The notes beneath the pieces are model-generated. The model ran no database searches, was not told the DNA's origin, and saw only the letters and a program-made list of their open reading frames with translations. This document shows, piece by piece, positions 15,723 to 53,910 of a stretch of 64,000 nucleotides of DNA. Numbering within the stretch: position 1 is the stretch's first letter; each line of letters begins with the position of its first letter. Source of the stretch: a virus (lineage: Duplodnaviria; Caudoviricetes); IMG/VR virus record IMGVR_UViG_3300006143_000333, positions 1-64,000 of that record. One strand, 5' to 3'. Position numbers and translations under genes: made by a program.

Positions 15723-15990
15723 TTGGAGGAATCAAATGAGCAAAGATATTTCAACAGAATACACAAAAGAAAAAAATGAAAAATGTGGAAGAAAAGGATA
15801 TTGTGGCTTTAAGAGAGAAAAAGTAACAGTTATAAGCCCTAAAGAATACGGAATGTTTTTACAAAAAAGGAGACATTGAGTTAATATGGTTGATGAAATT
15901 CGCATTTCAACCGTTAAAAATATAATGAAAAAAATAGAAAAGTATTTGGAGAAATATAATCCAGATACTTTTTATTATGGAGGAAAATAT

Positions 15991-17586
15991 ATGTTACCAA
16001 AAGAATTTTACCCTACACCAAAAGAATTATTGGACAAAATTACAGAAGGTATAGATTGGAAACAACTTCAATCAGTGTTAGAGCCGTCTGCTGGAAAAGG
16101 CGATATTGCAGATTATGTAAAAGAGAAATATAAAAATGAAACATGGAATTGTGGTTTAGATGTTGATTGTATAGAAATTGATGATACTCTTTGCCAAACA
16201 CTTAAAGGAAAAGAACTTAGAGTTGTACATAATGATTTTTTGACGTTTAACACTTTCAAACATTATGATTTAATTATCATGAATCCACCATTTAGCGATG
16301 GAGCAAAACATCTTTTACATGCGTTATCGCTTCAAAAAGATAATTTTGGAATTATTTGCATTTTAAATGCAGAAACGATTAGAAATCCATATACAAATGA
16401 AAGAAAAGATCTTGTGGAAAGATTGGAAAAGATGAATGCAGAAATTGAGTATATGGAAGGACAATTTTTATCAGCAGAACGTCCAACTGGTGTAGAAATA
16501 GCAGTTATAAAAGTTTTTGTACCAGAAGAAGAAAGGGTAAGTTATATTTTTGAGGATTTAAAGAAACAGTCATATCAGGAAAATATATATGAAGAAGTAA
16601 CCGATTTAGCACCAAATGATTTTATTAAAGCTATTGTACAGAAGTATAATATCGAAGTAGAAGCTGGGATAAAACTTATTATGGAGTATAAGGCAATGGT
16701 TCCACACATATTACAAGACTTAAAGGACAGTTCTTATAATAAGCCGATATTGGAAATGAAAATTCGTGATAGAGAACTTTCAACTAATGCGTTTGTTAAA
16801 GAAGTCAGACGTAAATATTGGACTGCATTATTCAGTAATCCTAAGTTTACTGGAAAAATGACTTCAAATTTAGCGAATAAATATCATAATCAGGTTGCAG
16901 AACTTACAAATTATGATTTTTCTGAATATAATATTCGGACAATTCAAATTGAAATGAGTAAAAATCTGGTAAGAGGAATAGAAGATTGTATTATTGAATT
17001 GTTTGATAAATTATCTCATCAATACGCATATAGTGATGAACTTTCAAACAATATTCATTACTATAATGGTTGGAAGACAAATAAAGCGTGGTATATAAAT
17101 AAAAAGGTTATTTTGCCATACATGAATGCCTTTAACAGTTGGAGTGGAAAGTTTGATCCTAATTATCAGGTGAAATCACAACTTGCAGATATTGAAAAAG
17201 CATTGAATTACTTAGACGGTGGATTGACGGATGGAAGGGATATGGAACTGTGGCTGAGACACGCAGCAGAAACAGGTCAAACACGAAAAATACAACTTAA
17301 ATATTTTTATGTAACATTTTATAAAAAAGGAACCTGTCATATTGAGTTTATCAATGAAGATCTTTTAAAGAAATTAAATATTTTTGGAAGCCAACAGAAA
17401 AAATGGTTGCCTCCTGGATATGGAAAAAAGAAATATAATGAGATGCAACCAGAAGAAAAAGCGGTTATTGATGAATTTGAAGGAAAAGCAAAATATGAAG
17501 AAACACTGAAGAATCAGGATTATTTTATTTATAATCCAATGAATTCTATTCAGTGTTTAGAGATGAATGCAGAAGAAATTGCATAA
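15991..17586 (+). CDS. Adenine DNA methyltransferase-like protein with DUF4942-type C-terminus (start corrected from 15886)
   Basis: FYPTP, VLEPSAGKG (motif I), IIMNPPF (motif IV), YFYVTFYKKGTCHIEF; GGAGG RBS. Confidence 0.8.
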   Translation: MLPKEFYPTPKELLDKITEGIDWKQLQSVLEPSAGKGDIADYVKEKYKNETWNCGLDVDCIEIDDTLCQTLKGKELRVVHNDFLTFNTFKHYDLIIMNPPFSDGAKHLLHALSLQKDNFGIICILNAETIRNPYTNERKDLVERLEKMNAEIEYMEGQFLSAERPTGVEIAVIKVFVPEEERVSYIFEDLKKQSYQENIYEEVTDLAPNDFIKAIVQKYNIEVEAGIKLIMEYKAMVPHILQDLKDSSYNKPILEMKIRDRELSTNAFVKEVRRKYWTALFSNPKFTGKMTSNLANKYHNQVAELTNYDFSEYNIRTIQIEMSKNLVRGIEDCIIELFDKLSHQYAYSDELSNNIHYYNGWKTNKAWYINKKVILPYMNAFNSWSGKFDPNYQVKSQLADIEKALNYLDGGLTDGRDMELWLRHAAETGQTRKIQLKYFYVTFYKKGTCHIEFINEDLLKKLNIFGSQQKKWLPPGYGKKKYNEMQPEEKAVIDEFEGKAKYEETLKNQDYFIYNPMNSIQCLEMNAEEIA

Positions 17587-17661
17587 CAAGCAATGAGATG
17601 TGAGCAATGAAATGTACCTTTTAAGACAATAAAATAGAAAAAGAAACAGAGAGGAAATAAT

Positions 17662-18275
17662 ATGTGTAAAGAAATAAATGTAATTAACAAAGCGGAAAAG
17701 GATTTGAATATCACAGTCAATAATGTAGATAGAAATATTCAGATTATAATCAACACAAAGAAAACAAATATTGATTTACTTGTATTAAAAGCAGGAGAAA
17801 CATTCAAGGTAAATAATGTCGAATACATAGTATTAGAACAGCTTGACGGAAATCAGACGGCAGTTATCAGAAAAGAATTAATAGAAGATGAGATGGAATT
17901 TGATTCTGACAATAATGATTGGAGGACAAGCAGTATTAAAAAATTTTTAAATGGAGAGTATCTAGAAGAAATTGAAAATGTATTTGGGAAAGATAGAATC
18001 GTAGAACATGTAGTAGATTTGTTATCTTTGGATGGTTTAGACGATTATGGGACAAGTATAGATAAAGTAAGTTTATTGTCGATTGATCAGTATCGGAAAT
18101 ATAGAAAAGTGCTTGGTGAAAATACAGATAATCCATGGTGGTTAATTACACCAGATTCAACGTCTTCAGGAAAATCGTCCCGCTATGTTCGGTACGTCCG
18201 CTCCGATGGCTGTGTGGACTTTAGCGACTGTGGCTGTGACGGGGTGTGCGTCCGTTTTTTATCATTCAATCTTGA
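17662..18275 (+). pseudogene. Second (remote) DGR target gene, paralog of 50808-51578, frameshifted within its VR
   Basis: Shares LSLDGLDDYG / WWLITP / RYV..V.SDG motifs with target 1; shifted frame ends GVRPFFIIQS* at 18275 vs GVRPFFILQS*. Confidence 0.8.
18178..18256 (+). repeat. DGR variable repeat VR2
   Basis: Aligns to TR 52070-52152; over the first 57 nt 13 differences at TR adenines and 4 at third-position C/T; net 4-nt deletion near the 3' end. Confidence 0.8.
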
Positions 18276-18851
18276 GCGGAGCGATAGATTGTTGTATCTT
18301 AAATCATTGAATCTTGCGAGAGAGTGGATGTTAGCTAGAAAATATACTCTGCGTAGCGGTGTTGTAAATTATAAATCATCAGACAAATTTTGTTCTGGTG
18401 ATTTTTTGATGGGAGAATAAAAAATGAGCAATAATAAAGAAACATATACTATAAAAGAAAGATTTGAGTGTTTAAATAAGAAAATGGTAATTGTTAAAGT
18501 TGATAATAAGGCTTGCTGTGTAATGATGCAAGAAGAGCATGATAAGATTATGTATGCGTATAAGAAAAATCAAAGGCAAAAATAGAAAATATATTGAAAA
18601 ATGTAGAAAATTAGCTTAAAATAGAAAATGGAGGATGTAGTAAATATGATTATATTTATTTTGTTAATAGTTTTAGCAATTATTATTGTTGCGAGTAGTT
18701 CAAAAGAAAGAAAAGTTATGAGTGATGTTAATCACATTGCACGGGATAATGAGAAGGTTATGTGGAAAGAAATTGAAAAAACAATGAGAGATGGAAAAAG
18801 TGATAAAAAAGTAACTGGATAAACTTGTTTTTTAATACATTGGAGGTTTAT

Positions 18852-19889
18852 ATGAAAATATATGAAAGAAAATCATTCCCACGAACAGCAAGAGATTTAA
18901 AAGTGATGTATGAAAAAGGAAATTTATCTTTTGATAATGCAGTTCAAAGGTCTTTTGTATGGAAAAATACGGCTAAAGATAATCGAATGAGTATGTTGAT
19001 TGATAGTATGATTAGAGGACTTCCAGTACCTCCTATGTATTGTAATTGTATATTTGAAGATATTAAAAATAAAACTTATGACTTTTTGGATGGTAAACAA
19101 CGAGTTACAACCATCGTTAAATTTTTGAAAGATGAATTTCCACTAGTAAATATTCCCACTTTTGAAGACGAAGAAGGAAATGAACAGGACTTTAATGATT
19201 TGGTATATTCTCAATTACCAGAAGATGTTCAAGACACTATAAAGACATATAGTTTAACAGTCTATTATTATGAGAATATGGATCAGGAAGATGCGGAGGA
19301 AATGTTCCGTAGGTTAAATAATGGGAAATCATTGACTGCGATCGAGTTGACTAGAGCTAATGCGATTTCTGGAGAGAAAATCCGTAAGATTGGCAATCAT
19401 AATTTATTTAATATTGCTATGTCTGAAAAATCTTTAGCTTCTTATGCAAATGAGGATGTTGTAATTAAGACATGGATTCTGTTATACAGTGATAAGAAGT
19501 CTTTTGAGACGAGATATGTACGTCCTGTGCTTAAAGATACTGTAATTACTGATGAACAGGTTGATGAGATAAATAAGATATATGATTTGTTGTTGGATCT
19601 ATATGAGAAATTGGCTGATAAAAAGCAGACAAAGATTATTAAGAAAATGTTCAATAAAACAAATTTGATATCATTAGTTTCGGTATTTAAAGAGGGGAAA
19701 GATAAAGAAATTTGTATTGATGAAATGGAAGAATGGATGGTTCGTTTTTATGATACTGGAACAAAAGAAATGTCTTTGAATGATGAATATAATGAAATTG
19801 TAAAAGGAAGAATTGCCGTTACTGAAAATGCGGTTGTGTCAAGAAAGAATATTCTATTGAATAATTTTAAAGAATTTATAAAAGCATAG
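18852..19889 (+). CDS. DUF262 (ParB/GmrS-like) domain protein
   Basis: VQRSFVW, LIDSMIRGLPVPP, DGKQR, FRRLNNG. Confidence 0.85.
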   Translation: MKIYERKSFPRTARDLKVMYEKGNLSFDNAVQRSFVWKNTAKDNRMSMLIDSMIRGLPVPPMYCNCIFEDIKNKTYDFLDGKQRVTTIVKFLKDEFPLVNIPTFEDEEGNEQDFNDLVYSQLPEDVQDTIKTYSLTVYYYENMDQEDAEEMFRRLNNGKSLTAIELTRANAISGEKIRKIGNHNLFNIAMSEKSLASYANEDVVIKTWILLYSDKKSFETRYVRPVLKDTVITDEQVDEINKIYDLLLDLYEKLADKKQTKIIKKMFNKTNLISLVSVFKEGKDKEICIDEMEEWMVRFYDTGTKEMSLNDEYNEIVKGRIAVTENAVVSRKNILLNNFKEFIKA

Positions 19890-20570
19890 ATATAAAAGGA
19901 TTATTTTATTGGGGATTGGAGGATAAGATATGGAATGGAAGGATTTAAGTGATAAAGCAAAAGGAATTTTGGAATGGGTAGAAAATCCATATACAAAAAG
20001 TCGAGAGACAATAGAAATTAAAATTGGAGAAGTTTTTTATAGAAAATGTCCTAAACTTTGTGGAGATTTTGGAGAGCCATTGGGTGATGTAAATATTTTA
20101 GTGACTAAGGAATTATATCAAGAAGTATTGTGTTATGTAACAGAATCAGAAGATATACTATATAAACAATTAGCTGATGGTATAGTTTTTAGATTGAAAG
20201 ATGGCGTGGAAATTTAAGTCTTGAAATGATTGATTTATTGGGAAAATATATTTGATAATAGCGAATAAAAGGAGAATGAAATGGATTTAGTACATGTAAT
20301 TGTTGTATATAATGATGAAGGTAGACTGGAAGATGCAATTGATTTCATAGAAGATAATTTTTCTAAAATTAAGGTTAAAGATTTAAATAAAGCATTGGAT
20401 TGGGCTGATAAAGATCCAAAAGATTACAAGGGGAAATATAACAAAATGAAAGCAATATTGAACTATTTAAGATATGAATATATGAAATAATAGTTTCAAG
20501 TAGAAAATTCGCTTGACCTTACAACTTATAAGTTGTAAAATGAATATAACAAAAGAGAAAGAAGGTCAAA

Positions 20571-49480: not shown

Positions 49481-50807
49481 GTTATTGAGAAAGGGAAAAT
49501 ATGAAAAACAAAATAGAAGAAGCAAAAGATTTAAAGTATCGGTTAGAAAATAATAAAAAGATAGTCCAATATTGTCTTGGAAAACAGGAAGATAATGACG
49601 GCGGATTTATTCATAATCCCAATAATGATAAACATAATTTTGTGTTTTCTACCACACAACATCATTCATCAAAACCAATATATTTAGATGCTTACTATGG
49701 ATATTATGGCAATAGTAATGTATCTATGTTTAATGATGAATTTTACATTACATGTATGGTAGAAGCAATAAATAAATTTCTTCCTCAACTTAGGGAAGAA
49801 ACAGAGAAAATTATGGGGCAGAAATACAATGAAGCACTATTAGAGGCGAAAGGTGAAGCTGAGAAGATTCTTAAAACAATTGAAGATCTAGGTTTGAATT
49901 AGGCAATGAAAAATTCATTTCAATTATTACAGAAGGAGAGGTCATGATTAATATAGAGAAAACAGATAGTATAGAACAAGAATATTTACAGTGTTCAAGC
50001 TGTTTAAAATGTAATGATGATTTAAATATGTTTAAAATCATTGTTGGTAAAAATATGAGACAAACAACAACTGTGAAATTATGCGAAGAATGTATGCGTG
50101 ATTTATTGGAAGATTTAAAAAGATTGGAAATTAACGGTCAGATATAAGTGGCAATGAATATTTGATTTTGTGGTGTGAGGTGATAGGATGACAGAGAATG
50201 AAGCAATCGCAAGAATGAGGTACAGAATAGATACAGCAACAGAAGCAATTGGAAAAGGTTCTGATGGTAAGGCTTATGAGGATATGGAAATCGCAATTAA
50301 AGCACTTGAAGAAATTCAACAGTACAGAGTAATTGGGACAGTTGAGGAATGTCGAGAGGCACGGGAAAGGCAGATTGGGAAGAACCCCATAATTTTAAGT
50401 GAGCAATCTGTAGAATCAGAGAAAAAATTATATATAGCAAAGTATTTCAAATGTCCTACTTGCGGAAACACATCTACATATTTCGGAGGACTACCTAATA
50501 ATTGTCATAATTGTGGTCAGAGGTTGGAGAGTGATGCCACATGACCTACCAAAGAGCAGACCAAAAACATCCATTAATGGGGCTTGATAATAAAATCTGT
50601 AAAAATCCTGCCTATTGGTGTAGGTTACATCAAGTCTGGTTGTCTGATGATGATGTAAAGAAGAAACAATGTAAATGTAAACAGACTTTTGACATGGTTG
50701 GTACATATTGTTGCGGAAATTTAGTCAAGAAGTCAATAAAATGAAACTTTCAAGTAAGAAAAGAGAAATATATATATCACAAAAATGAAAAGGAGAGATG
50801 ATAAGTT

Positions 50808-51578
50808 ATGTGTAATTTTAAGAGTGGAATTATTTTGAAGAACAAGGTGGTTTTAGCACCAGAAGGAAATGAAAGCCATTCAGATTTATTGAAAAATCTT
50901 GAAATTGAAGATACTCACATGAATGCATCTAAAACATTTGTAAGAGCAGAGTTAATTCCTAAAAATAATGATAAAACGACCAATGTAAAAGACTGGAGAT
51001 ATAAAGTCGATCAGGATATTGTGCCTGATTGGTATGAAAAAGACCCAGAGAGATACGAACAAGATTTTAGAAATGCAGTTGAAGAATATATGAATGAGTG
51101 GAGAAAACAGTTAAAATTCATTTGTGGGCATTATTGGACAAGTGCTCAGGATGGGAATCGTACATATTATTTTATGAATGGGATTCTTAAAAAGTCAGAC
51201 TTTGGTAAAACAAATAATTATGCAGAATCTTATGTGCGGAGAGATCTTATTAATAGTGAGTTGGCAGAGGATTTAAAGAAAGAATTTGGAGATAAACTTG
51301 TTCCGATTTCTCTTGATTTGACTTCTATGGATGGATTTAAAGATTATGGAAGTGTTGAAGGTGATATTTTAGCAATCCCAAATATTCAGTTGCTTATGAA
51401 GTTTGGTGAAAGTATTCCATTGATTGATAATTGGTATTGGCTTGCTAATCCTAATCAGACACCGAAGAGAAACGACGCCCGCTATGTTCTGTGCGTTAGC
51501 TCCGATGGCGATGTGTGCTACGGCGATTGCGGCTGGAGTGGCCGGGGCGTGCGTCCGTTTTTCATCCTTCAATCTTAA
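50808..51578 (+). CDS. DGR target protein with C-terminal variable (C-type lectin-like, DUF6273-like) domain
   Basis: WYWLANP...VR...GVRPFF C-terminus. Confidence 0.9.
   Translation: MCNFKSGIILKNKVVLAPEGNESHSDLLKNLEIEDTHMNASKTFVRAELIPKNNDKTTNVKDWRYKVDQDIVPDWYEKDPERYEQDFRNAVEEYMNEWRKQLKFICGHYWTSAQDGNRTYYFMNGILKKSDFGKTNNYAESYVRRDLINSELAEDLKKEFGDKLVPISLDLTSMDGFKDYGSVEGDILAIPNIQLLMKFGESIPLIDNWYWLANPNQTPKRNDARYVLCVSSDGDVCYGDCGWSGRGVRPFFILQS
51477..51559 (+). repeat. DGR variable repeat VR1
   Basis: 83-nt ungapped alignment to TR; 18 mismatches, all at TR adenines. Confidence 0.97.
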
Positions 51579-51620
51579 ATCTTTGAATTTTGCAAAAAAC
51601 CATCGGGTAGCCAGTAATCA

Positions 51621-51638
51621 GGAATGCGTCAGCATTCC
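51621..51638 (+). other. DGR target-recognition-like hairpin
   Basis: GGAATGC-GTCA-GCATTCC downstream of VR1/IMH, nested in CATCGG/CCGATG. Confidence 0.65.
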
Positions 51639-51679
51639 GTAGGTAGCCGATGAGCGACTGAAAGGAGCGGGGAAAACCA

Positions 51680-52048
51680 GTGAGCGAAGCGAAACTGGAT
51701 GTTATTGTAAAAGCAATAAATCTTATGGAATATACTATGACAATTACATCAAACCGAAAGAGGTATCCAGTTAAGCATTTAACATTGGTAAAACGCATCC
51801 AAAATCGCTGTATGGATATATATGAATATTTGCTTGATGCAAATAGGCTGAAATTGGATACTTCAAAATCGGAACGCCAAGAATTACAAACAAAAGCATT
51901 TTCATGTTGTGATAAGTTGTCTTGTTATGTGGAACTTTCTATGAAATTGAAATTAATTGGAAGTGATACAGTAGGATATTGGCAGAAACAAATAAATGAT
52001 GTGAAATATATGAGTATTGCATGGCGTTCAAAAGATAAAGAGAGATAA
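51680..52048 (+). CDS. avd: Avd accessory variability determinant (four-helix bundle)
   Basis: 122-aa basic helical protein, YPVK..LVKRIQ..AN...W pattern, between VR and TR. Confidence 0.85.
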   Translation: MSEAKLDVIVKAINLMEYTMTITSNRKRYPVKHLTLVKRIQNRCMDIYEYLLDANRLKLDTSKSERQELQTKAFSCCDKLSCYVELSMKLKLIGSDTVGYWQKQINDVKYMSIAWRSKDKER

Positions 52049-52069
52049 TTTTAGGTTGTTTGTTGTATG

Positions 52070-52152
52070 ACCCACTATGTTCAGTACGTTAACTCCAATG
52101 GCAATGTGAACTACAACGATTGCAACTGGAATGACAAAGGCGTGCGTCCGTT
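52070..52152 (+). repeat. DGR template repeat TR
   Basis: AAC/AAT-rich template with 25 adenines; diverges from VR after GTGCGTCCGTT (IMH*). Confidence 0.97.
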
Positions 52153-52271
52153 CTGGATCGGAAGACGAATGAAAGTAAGAGAAACACTGAAATTAGAGTC
52201 CCGATATCAAAAGAATAAACAACCTTTCCTGATTCAAAAATGTCAGGATAAATACAAAGGAACAAAATACT

Positions 52272-53315
52272 ATGATAGAAGATAAAACAGATTTTGAAAA
52301 AGTAGTAGATTTCGGTAATTTATATCAAGCATATTTAAAATCTAAATCAGGTAAAGGTTTTTCAAAAAGCAGTCAAAAATTCCAAGTATTAGCTCTTGAT
52401 GGAATTCATCAAATAAAGAGAAGATTAGAAACTAAAACATATCAAGTATCAAAATACAATGAATTTATAATATATGAACCGAAAGAGAGAGTCATTAAAG
52501 CATGTTCGTTTGTAGATAAAATTGTACAGCATAGTTTGTGTGATAATGTACTGATTCCAAGATTGAATAAAGAGTTTATTCAAACAAATTATGCTGGACA
52601 GATTGGCAAAGGTACATTGTATGGATTGGATTGCTTAAAAGCTCAGATGTATCTTGCATATCAGAAGTATGGATATGATTGTTGGATTATAAAAGCTGAT
52701 GTTAGCAAGTTCTTTTACAATATCAATCACGATATTTTGAAGGATATTTTGAAATATTTTATAGAAAATAAAGAAGTGTATTGGCTGTGTGAGAAGTTTA
52801 TTGATAGTACTGAGGGAGTAGGACTTCCATTAGGTAATCAGGTTAGTCAAGTATTTGCACTTTTATATTTATCAGTGTTAGATCACTTTATCACAGGAGA
52901 ACTTGGAGTTAAATATTATGGTAGATATATGGATGATTTTTATTTGATAGTACAAAATAAAGAATATGCGAAATGGTGTTTAGCAGCTATTTATGAGTTT
53001 GTGTATTCATTAGGTCTTGAATTAAACAGTAAGACTCAGGTCATTCCTTTTAAAAATGGAATCAAATTTTGTGGTTTTCATACATATGTGACTTCAGATG
53101 GTAAAGTAATCCGAAAGCTGAAGAACGAAAATAAACGTGCCGCTAAAAAGAAATTTAAGAAAATGGTTGGATTAGTGAGGTGTGGAAAACTTAGCAAAGA
53201 GAAATTTTATGAGAGTTACAATGCTTGGAAAAATCATATATCACATGGCAATTGTGTGAAATTGGGATATGAGATGGATAGATATATAGAAAAATTATTT
53301 ATAGGAGAAAAATGA
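52272..53315 (+). CDS. DGR reverse transcriptase
   Basis: EPKER, KADVSKFF, GLPLGNQVSQ (DGR-type SQ), RYMDDF. Confidence 0.95.
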   Translation: MIEDKTDFEKVVDFGNLYQAYLKSKSGKGFSKSSQKFQVLALDGIHQIKRRLETKTYQVSKYNEFIIYEPKERVIKACSFVDKIVQHSLCDNVLIPRLNKEFIQTNYAGQIGKGTLYGLDCLKAQMYLAYQKYGYDCWIIKADVSKFFYNINHDILKDILKYFIENKEVYWLCEKFIDSTEGVGLPLGNQVSQVFALLYLSVLDHFITGELGVKYYGRYMDDFYLIVQNKEYAKWCLAAIYEFVYSLGLELNSKTQVIPFKNGIKFCGFHTYVTSDGKVIRKLKNENKRAAKKKFKKMVGLVRCGKLSKEKFYESYNAWKNHISHGNCVKLGYEMDRYIEKLFIGEK

Positions 53316-53910
53316 TGGAATATATTTTGTTTTCATTTATATTGGCTGGAACACCTGCTTTATATACTGGATATTGTAATAAATTGAGAGACTTAATTCG
53401 ATTAATTTTCATCATAACATTTATCGTAATCTATTATATTAATAAATGGGAAACCGCAGATATTAATGTGGGATTATTCGTTTGTTGGTGTGCAGTATGG
53501 ACGATATTTTGGGATAATTTATATAAGAAACTTAAAAGGAAATGAAACACGAGTTTTAAGGAGGAAAATTATGAAATCAGTAGAAGAAAGAATTACAAAT
53601 AAGATTGAAGAAAGTGAAGATGGAGTGTTGATGAAGTTCCTTGGAGCTAAAAATGTTGAAAGACTGAAAAAGGAAGTTACAGATGCAATTATTCAACAGG
53701 TAATCAAAGATTTACATGATAGTTGTGATTATATAATTAGCCCAGACGATATAGTGCAAGACATTATTGATGATATTATAGATTCTGCTAATAAGAATAT
53801 TAGACCGAAAGTAGAAAAGCTGTTGTATAAGAAAGCTATGGAAAAATTAGGATTAGAGGAATAGTTTTAAAATTTCCGTTTTAAGGCTATTTTAGAGAAA
53901 GGATAATAAT

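Follow-up and report, generated by a model that had tools for sequence, protein, structure and literature searches.

A frameshifted, non-adjacent DGR target in a mouse-gut phage, with a variable repeat that fits a sister template better than the resident one

Results

The remote target and the resident DGR cassette

The window analysed here is the first 64 kb (positions 1 to 64,000) of IMG/VR record IMGVR_UViG_3300006143_000333, which is 128,958 bp long with a completeness of 71% (CheckV). The contigs of close relatives measure 243-249 kb, so the 129-kb record may represent about half of a genome of ~245 kb. All runs and assemblies containing the phage originate from mouse gut, and one relative was found inside a Lachnospiraceae isolate assembly. 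Most of positions 17000-19500 is also present in runs X15-X20, which are labelled as a single organism rather than a metagenome and carry an S-to-F variant at 18395; these may be cultures of the phage-carrying host.

The window contains a complete DGR cassette (50808-53315) and, 33 kb from it on the same strand, a second DGR target gene, target 2. The features at the target-2 locus are as follows.

17608..17623, + strand: junction site TGAAA-N6-TTTTA, left edge of the target-2 module; homology with L003 and L007 begins exactly here, and the upstream gene differs
17662..18420, + strand: target-2 ORF as now read, 252 aa, DUF6273/C-lectin-like (ORF list, Pfam, phrog_9958); the last 58 residues are an out-of-frame read-through
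18179..18263, + strand: VR2, the variable repeat of target 2 (alignments to TR and VR1, sister-allele differences, family entropy)
18241..18244, + strand: G4 run where the loss of 1 nt shifts the frame (the intact sister allele has G5 at this point), from DNA alignment with L003-L012; no indel variants in contigs of four runs
18246..18266, + strand: IMH-like 3' end of VR2, read directly and compared with VR1 and TR
18267..18291, + strand: hairpin 1, CAATCT-N13-AGATTG with a GCGGAGC loop, spanning the original stop at 18273-18275 (fold; the element recurs in relatives)
18283..18335, + strand: 53-nt stretch absent from the intact sister allele, holding the 3' arm of hairpin 1 and the 22-nt motif (alignment; blastn blocks end at 18282 and 18333, and the bounds are ambiguous by 3 nt)
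18296..18317, + strand: 22-nt motif in common with the 3' flank of VR1 (51572-51593)
18346..18362, + strand: decayed counterpart of the family's downstream GC hairpin (-1.0 kcal/mol, z 0.2)
19893..19908, + strand: junction site, right edge of the target-2 module; L003 homology ends at 19913

The features of the cassette module are the following.

50737..50752, + strand: junction site, left edge of the module; homology with L070, L071 and L057 starts at 50729-50736, and upstream genes differ
50808..51578, + strand: target 1, 256 aa, with VR1 at 51478-51566
51621..51638, + strand: GC hairpin 3' of VR1, GGAATGC-GTCA-GCATTCC, with compensatory variants in L071, L036, L037, L074 and G001
51680..52048, + strand: Avd-like accessory gene, named from its position and its conservation in sister cassettes (no Pfam match; 97.5% identical in G001)
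52071..52159, + strand: resident TR, long form, encoding ..DCNWNDKGVRPF (alignments to VR1 and VR2)
52272..53315, + strand: DGR reverse transcriptase (Pfam RVT_1, E 3.2e-15)
53543..53558, + strand: junction site, right edge of the module (site pattern search and homology block ends)

The ~110 nt between the TR and the start of the RT (52160-52270) are highly conserved also in L070, L071, L074 and L036 though the flanks diverge, which fits a structured part of the DGR RNA.

Protein family and predicted fold of target 2

The match of target 2 to Pfam DUF6273 (PF19789) scores just below the gathering cut-off (23.0 versus 23.5 bits), and that to phrog_9958 has an E-value of 8.5e-41. Nearly all target-2 homologues carry a precomputed PF19789 match, have a length of 202-206 aa and terminate in GVRPFFI(L/I/V)QS. 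An earlier note on this DNA had described the N-terminal domains of the two targets as different. This holds for the first 60-110 residues and not for the rest, which is a common DUF6273/phrog_9958 domain (33% identity over ~138 aa). A peptide-pattern search of IMG/VR for target 2 returned no close relatives, the best relatives in an alignment-based search of virus collections were at most 49% identical, and the neighbouring methyltransferase was the sole match among GenBank phages (blastn).

An intact sister allele of target 2 (P0123; L003-L006, from other mouse samples) was modelled over the counterpart of 17662-18275 using AF2 (pLDDT 77.6), and GVRPFFIIQS is predicted with confidence to form the terminal beta-strand. 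A Foldseek search of the PDB with this model gave no match at E <= 0.001, and the fold was assigned using VIA-align, with modest Z values: many CTLDs at 3-5, the DGR target TvpA (2y3c) at 4.0, and 9qa6 at 10.1. The model and this comparison point to a C-type-lectin-like fold with the VR near the C-terminus. A gut-bacterial protease noted in connection with the P0123 model may carry a DUF6273-like domain. The ORF of target 2 itself does not run through the VR to the family's normal C-terminus.

Differences of VR2 from the resident TR at non-adenine positions

Within the 129-kb record, VR2 aligned to the TR (52071-52159) with 70.8% identity (E 6e-7) and to VR1 (51478-51576) with 77.8% identity (E 1e-16). 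The alignment bore out the 13 adenine-position changes in the first 57 nt that the earlier note had reported; in the core as a whole, 14 of the 21 aligned adenines are changed, and a 15th adenine change lies two bases upstream. The five third-position C/T differences counted in the same note were likewise found. They are GTT>GTC, TAC>TTT, GAT>GAC, TGC>TGT and GGC>GGT, all silent, and amount to 5 of 57 non-adenine positions. The corresponding values for VR1 are 17 of 24 adenines changed and none of 58 other positions (non-adenine mismatches in VR2 versus VR1, Fisher p 0.027). VR2 is also net 4 nt shorter than the TR, with one 3-nt and one 1-nt gap. An RT and a TR are present in the same genome, but the differences of VR2 from this TR are not confined to adenines and the two are unequal in length, as would not be expected of a VR that this DGR currently targets. 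Elsewhere in the 129-kb record there was no other RT or TR of DGR type, nor did the 243-kb contig of G001, a sister genome, contain a second TR or RT for its own remote VR; a second TR could lie in the missing part of the genome.

Comparison of the window with the intact sister allele revealed 14 differing positions in 676 nt, of which 12 fall in VR2 and 2 outside; 9 of the 12 are at template-adenine positions. Across 102 homologues, the entropy reaches 2-3 bits at adenine-bearing codons (AAY in the TR) and is ~0 at V176, V179, G183, C190 and G195-F200, so that hypervariability in the target-2 family is limited to template-adenine codons. VR2 therefore appears, from these alignments, to have been recently diversified by adenine mutagenesis.

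Recognition elements downstream of the variable repeats

The IMH-like end of VR2 is nearly intact: GTGCGTCCGTT is common to VR2 and the TR, and the bases that follow, TTTTATCATT, resemble VR1 and not the TR. Further downstream, the earlier note had seen a sequence that directly follows VR1 recur near 18296 after a short insert. The recurrence stands, as a 22-nt motif found at exactly two sites (18296 and 51572; 0 expected by chance), and it is conserved after the VRs of relatives. The "insert" proved to be a conserved hairpin (hairpin 1) that is missing at VR1. A decayed GC hairpin also remains further on, at 18346-18362; the earlier note had seen no clear hairpin.

Hairpin 1 recurs 3' of both G001 VRs and of the L037 VR, with the base of the stem changing between C-G, A-T and T-T. 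Its stability does not exceed that of shuffled sequence (z 0.9 to -0.7), and it is absent after VR1 of the window and the VR1s of L070, L071 and L074, all of which are in step with their own TRs. For these reasons it is not claimed as a required element. The 53-nt deletion in the intact allele (L003 5370) lies just after the stop codon, has a repeated AGC at its two ends and takes away the 22-nt motif.

In G001, the ~68 nt after the two VRs (L062 = G001:C5, minus strand, ~1400-1527; L065, ~1400-1527) are nearly identical, with 1 difference, and past a short divergent spacer both VRs carry the same GC hairpin. This common stretch includes a 9-bp AT-rich hairpin with GCGAAGC in its loop and the stop codon inside it. 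The loop reads GCGAAGC in G001, GCGTAGC in L037 and GCGGAGC in the window. The sequence GCGAAGC is known to form a mini-hairpin of great stability in DNA.

Throughout the family, a GC hairpin with a covarying stem lies downstream of each adjacent VR, at -5 to -10.5 kcal/mol. That of VR1 folds at -7.3 kcal/mol (z -4.3) and those of the relatives at -5.1 to -10.5 kcal/mol, compared with -1.0 kcal/mol for the counterpart at VR2. The intact sister allele has the decayed hairpin too, yet its VR differs, which suggests that the GC hairpin may not be essential.

The observations above bear on the proposal of the earlier note that target 2 might be a trans target of the resident DGR. In this explanation VR2 is still live, retrohoming occurs only rarely, and when it next takes place it would write over the indel, which would make the frameshift a rescuable off state. 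A complete cassette is present in the same genome with VR1 perfectly in step with its TR, the IMH-like ends of VR2 and VR1 differ at only ~3 of 30 positions, prophage DGRs often have non-adjacent targets within 50 kb (PMC5758913), and the lost base falls within the stretch that would be rewritten from a cDNA. The frameshifted VR2 is identical in every assembly and contig examined; these are consensus contigs, at which level rare variants are invisible. VR1 is constant as well, across 60 contigs of this clone, and the DGR thus seems rarely active at the consensus level, so the constancy of VR2 alone is no proof that it is untargetable. However, the five non-adenine mismatches and the codon-length difference show that, since the arrival of the resident TR, no event templated by it has become fixed in VR2. 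Moreover, the GC hairpin of VR2 has decayed, and BPP-1 requires a hairpin of this type to home efficiently (PMC3240598); remote VRs are also out of step in other lineages, described below. The data therefore do not support trans targeting by the resident DGR, and we regard a live VR2 as unlikely.

Templates in sister cassettes

Sister cassettes were recovered from G001 (RT 90% identical), L070, L071, L074 (a provirus, RT 91% identical), G002 and G005. The adjacent VR in these cassettes shows no non-adenine core mismatches to its own TR, except for two in G002. The sister TRs differ among themselves at exactly the sites of the silent departures of VR2, and both long and short forms exist. The G001 TR is of the long form and has all four of the variants GTC, GAC, TGT and GGT, for which the earlier note had suggested a search. 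The L074 TR is short and has GAC, TGT and GGT, and it fits VR2 better than the resident TR does: its alignment to VR2 has only the 1-nt gap and, at non-adenine positions, two mismatches (GTT/GTC and TAC/TTT), where the resident TR gives five such mismatches and a gap of 4 nt. The TRs of L070, L071 and L060 are of the short form as well. All five non-adenine variants of VR2, and its missing codon, are thus natural variants in the TRs of sister cassettes, in support of the second option of the earlier note, a relic templated by a sister TR. An exact cognate TR, with GTC and TAT too, gave no match in two pattern scans of JGI metagenome contigs. Two viral scans found L061 and L074, with L074 as the best, though not exact, fit.

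TR length is polymorphic even among very close relatives, as both the long (256-aa) and the short (255-aa) form of the VR are found in target-1 proteins whose remaining sequence matches at 99% identity. Remote target-2 VRs are out of step in G001 (four non-adenine mismatches) and in G005 (four) as well, the target-2 and TR loci of G005 being on different contigs of a MAG.

In a further MAG, a target-2-type gene lies directly upstream of avd-TR-RT (L059 = G002:C63, 3348-4378). The RT frame of G002 is interrupted there by one in-frame TAA and falls into two overlapping pieces. The differences between this VR and its TR are mostly adenine-only despite the interrupted RT.

An origin of the non-adenine changes and indels by slippage or misincorporation of the resident RT, with no other template involved, has precedent: a survey of 372 DGRs reported non-A-to-N changes in 23%, TR/VR length differences in 7% and often unequal pairs of targets (PMC5758913). 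The 1-nt loss inside a homopolymer created by mutagenesis would also suit such an origin. Random errors are not expected, however, to reproduce five non-adenine states and a missing codon that are all found in sister TRs, nor to be silent third-position C/T changes in all five cases. The intact sister allele has the same non-adenine states, and the short form is found in most orthologues. We therefore consider errors of the resident RT an improbable source of these differences, and templating by a sister TR is the reading followed below.

The frameshift in VR2

The earlier note had reported a net loss of 4 nt that shifts the frame. The loss is real, but the frameshift comes from one base only, the change from G5 to G4 at 18241-18244. 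The other three bases correspond to a Trp codon of the resident TR that is absent from most orthologues and some sister TRs: the TR encodes C-N-W-N-D-K-G, and homologue VRs read C-G-Y-D-G-G. As most homologues are without this codon, three of the four "lost" bases represent the usual short form of the VR. At the fourth base, the intact sister allele reads GACGGGGGTGTG and the window GACGGGGTGTG. The G run is derived from A-to-G changes at the AAA codon before GGT.

As a result of the shift, the near-invariant ten-residue end of the protein, GVRPFFIIQS, gives way to 58 residues unrelated to it. In the displaced frame, GVRPFFIIQS is followed by a stop at 18273-18275, in accordance with the earlier reading. 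The read-through ORF remains open for 58 codons, and its stop is 4 nt short of the next gene; this is noticeable but is taken as chance. A functional 58-residue extension was rejected because the stretch is intergenic or deleted in the sister allele. Programmed frameshifting or transcriptional slippage at C-GGGG-T was likewise rejected, by inference, as there is no X XXY YYZ site, no structure at a distance of 5-9 nt, and a run of only four bases.

Only two of 120 homologue clusters, target 2 and P0059, have a frameshift through the GVRPFF end, and a third, P0102, ends early, probably because of a contig end. P0059 (217 aa, 65% identical, one contig) is frameshifted at the Gly-Gly/GVRP junction, and this G-rich junction may be a recurrent weak point.

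That the G4 run is a homopolymer sequencing or assembly artefact in an intact gene is barely credible even at a G run, the classic place for such errors, since G4 occurs without indel at the site in contigs of four runs from four studies (two of which may be the source of this record), the exact VR2 of the window is found in six separate ENA assemblies, the 252-aa product or a one-residue variant is present in 13 + 78 contigs and indexed in 124 blocks, and G5 occurs on a separate haplotype that differs at 13 further positions. The assembly error that the earlier note had allowed for is thereby ruled out. All the mice may share one clonal phage, in which case the G4 replicates are independent as sequencing and not as evolution. 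The broken allele is the only form in all ten assemblies and runs of this clone examined.

Junction sites and exchangeable modules

A pattern search revealed that TRAAA-N6-TTTYA sites are over-represented (23 versus 3.4 expected), and homology blocks with relatives start or stop at the sites at 15907, 17608 and 50736. The DGR cassette forms such a block, from 50736 to ~53300-53558, and is surrounded by different neighbours in L070 and L071. Judged from these boundaries, the DGR cassette and the target-2 gene each lie in an exchangeable module bounded by junction sites. Since homology breaks at these sites, either module could derive from a phage with another TR.

A gene for a 566-aa DUF4942 methyltransferase lies exactly between the junction sites at 15894-15909 and 17608-17623. 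In L003 and L007 it is replaced by a 157-aa gene, with flanks >99% identical.

Discussion

Target 2 is a second target of an already known kind that is stranded and frameshifted, with a VR that records a different sister template. The survey by Wu et al. (2018, NAR) described non-adjacent targets within 50 kb in prophages, and also covered substitutions other than A-to-N, indels and frameshifts, as well as DGRs whose two targets show unequal patterns (PMC5758913). The phage studied here resembles those prophage DGRs in having a second target <50 kb from the RT that shows non-A-to-N changes, a length difference and a frameshift, and an adjacent target with A-to-N changes only. It differs from them in that the odd changes were traced to sister-TR variants and exchangeable modules, and in that the target is broken.

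DUF6273 has been described as a C-lectin-like target domain of DGRs in gut phages with two targets (PMC10743442), including Faecalibacterium prophages (PMC11792537). As in those phages, the targets here are small single-domain proteins with the VR at the C-terminal end of the domain, and there are two paralogous targets. In those phages both targets lie in or beside the cassette and are treated as active, whereas the second target here is 33 kb away, out of step and frameshifted. A distal second target among methyltransferase and defence-type genes, not tail genes, is also found in the Quimbyvirus DGR (Benler et al. 2021; PMC8008677), but both Quimbyvirus VRs show adenine-only differences, and the host phylum is Bacteroidetes, compared with Lachnospiraceae here. 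Neither target in this window is structural.

Efficient homing in BPP-1 depends on a hairpin downstream of the VR (Guo et al. 2011; PMC3240598). The arrangement in this family is similar, with a GC-rich end common to VR and TR, then VR-specific sequence, and downstream inverted repeats with stems that covary among relatives. Unlike in BPP-1, the GC hairpin, as recognized here from sequence, lies ~55-85 nt past the point of VR/TR divergence and not 4-34 nt; its loops are GTCA, GTAA or GTA compared with GRNA; and some VRs are directly followed by an extra AT-rich hairpin with a GCGNAGC loop.

We consider it likely that target 2 is a non-adjacent DGR target, paralogous to target 1, that was templated by a sister TR and is now a frameshifted relic that the resident DGR does not maintain. 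The order of events that we infer is the following. Target 2 sits in a separate accessory-gene module 33 kb upstream of the cassette. VR2 would have been written by adenine mutagenesis from a sister TR that was one codon shorter and had GTC, TAT, GAC, TGT and GGT. It could have become uncoupled from its template when one or the other module was exchanged at the junction sites; alternatively, a co-resident prophage with a related DGR could have supplied the template in trans. The G5 run would have arisen when the AAA codon beside GGT underwent A-to-G mutagenesis, and one G was then presumably lost from it. This loss would have exchanged the C-terminal strand for the read-through residues, and the downstream GC hairpin would have decayed as well. 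The function of the target-2 protein and the targetability of VR2 would both have been lost, and target 2 is most likely a non-functional relic. Restoration of its frame by retrohoming from the resident TR is nevertheless sound in principle, as the tract to be replaced by a cDNA would include the site of the deletion.

A bolder and quite doubtful extension of this reading would be that the cassette and the remote target are exchanged independently at address-like junctions, that a remote VR preserves, as a dated "fossil", a TR that was there earlier or was foreign, and that the frameshifted copy is a silent reserve allele, to be rewritten and switched on again by a single retrohoming event from whichever TR is present. 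The remote VR is out of step in each of three lineages (the window, G001 and G005). If true, the reserve-allele reading would amount to DGR-mediated pseudogene rescue.

The known mechanism is unchanged by these results, which provide a well-documented example and no new system. For annotation, they mean that a distant VR-like repeat should be taken as an active target only if it agrees with the resident TR in length and at its non-adenine positions. For the evolution of DGRs, a change of template accounts here for the "non-canonical" TR/VR differences better than sloppy reverse transcription does, because sister TRs differ by a codon and at silent sites, and the cassette lies in an exchangeable module. 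The locus also illustrates a cost of mutagenesis: A-to-G changes beside GG give a G5 run, and it is exactly there that the frame of target 2 broke.
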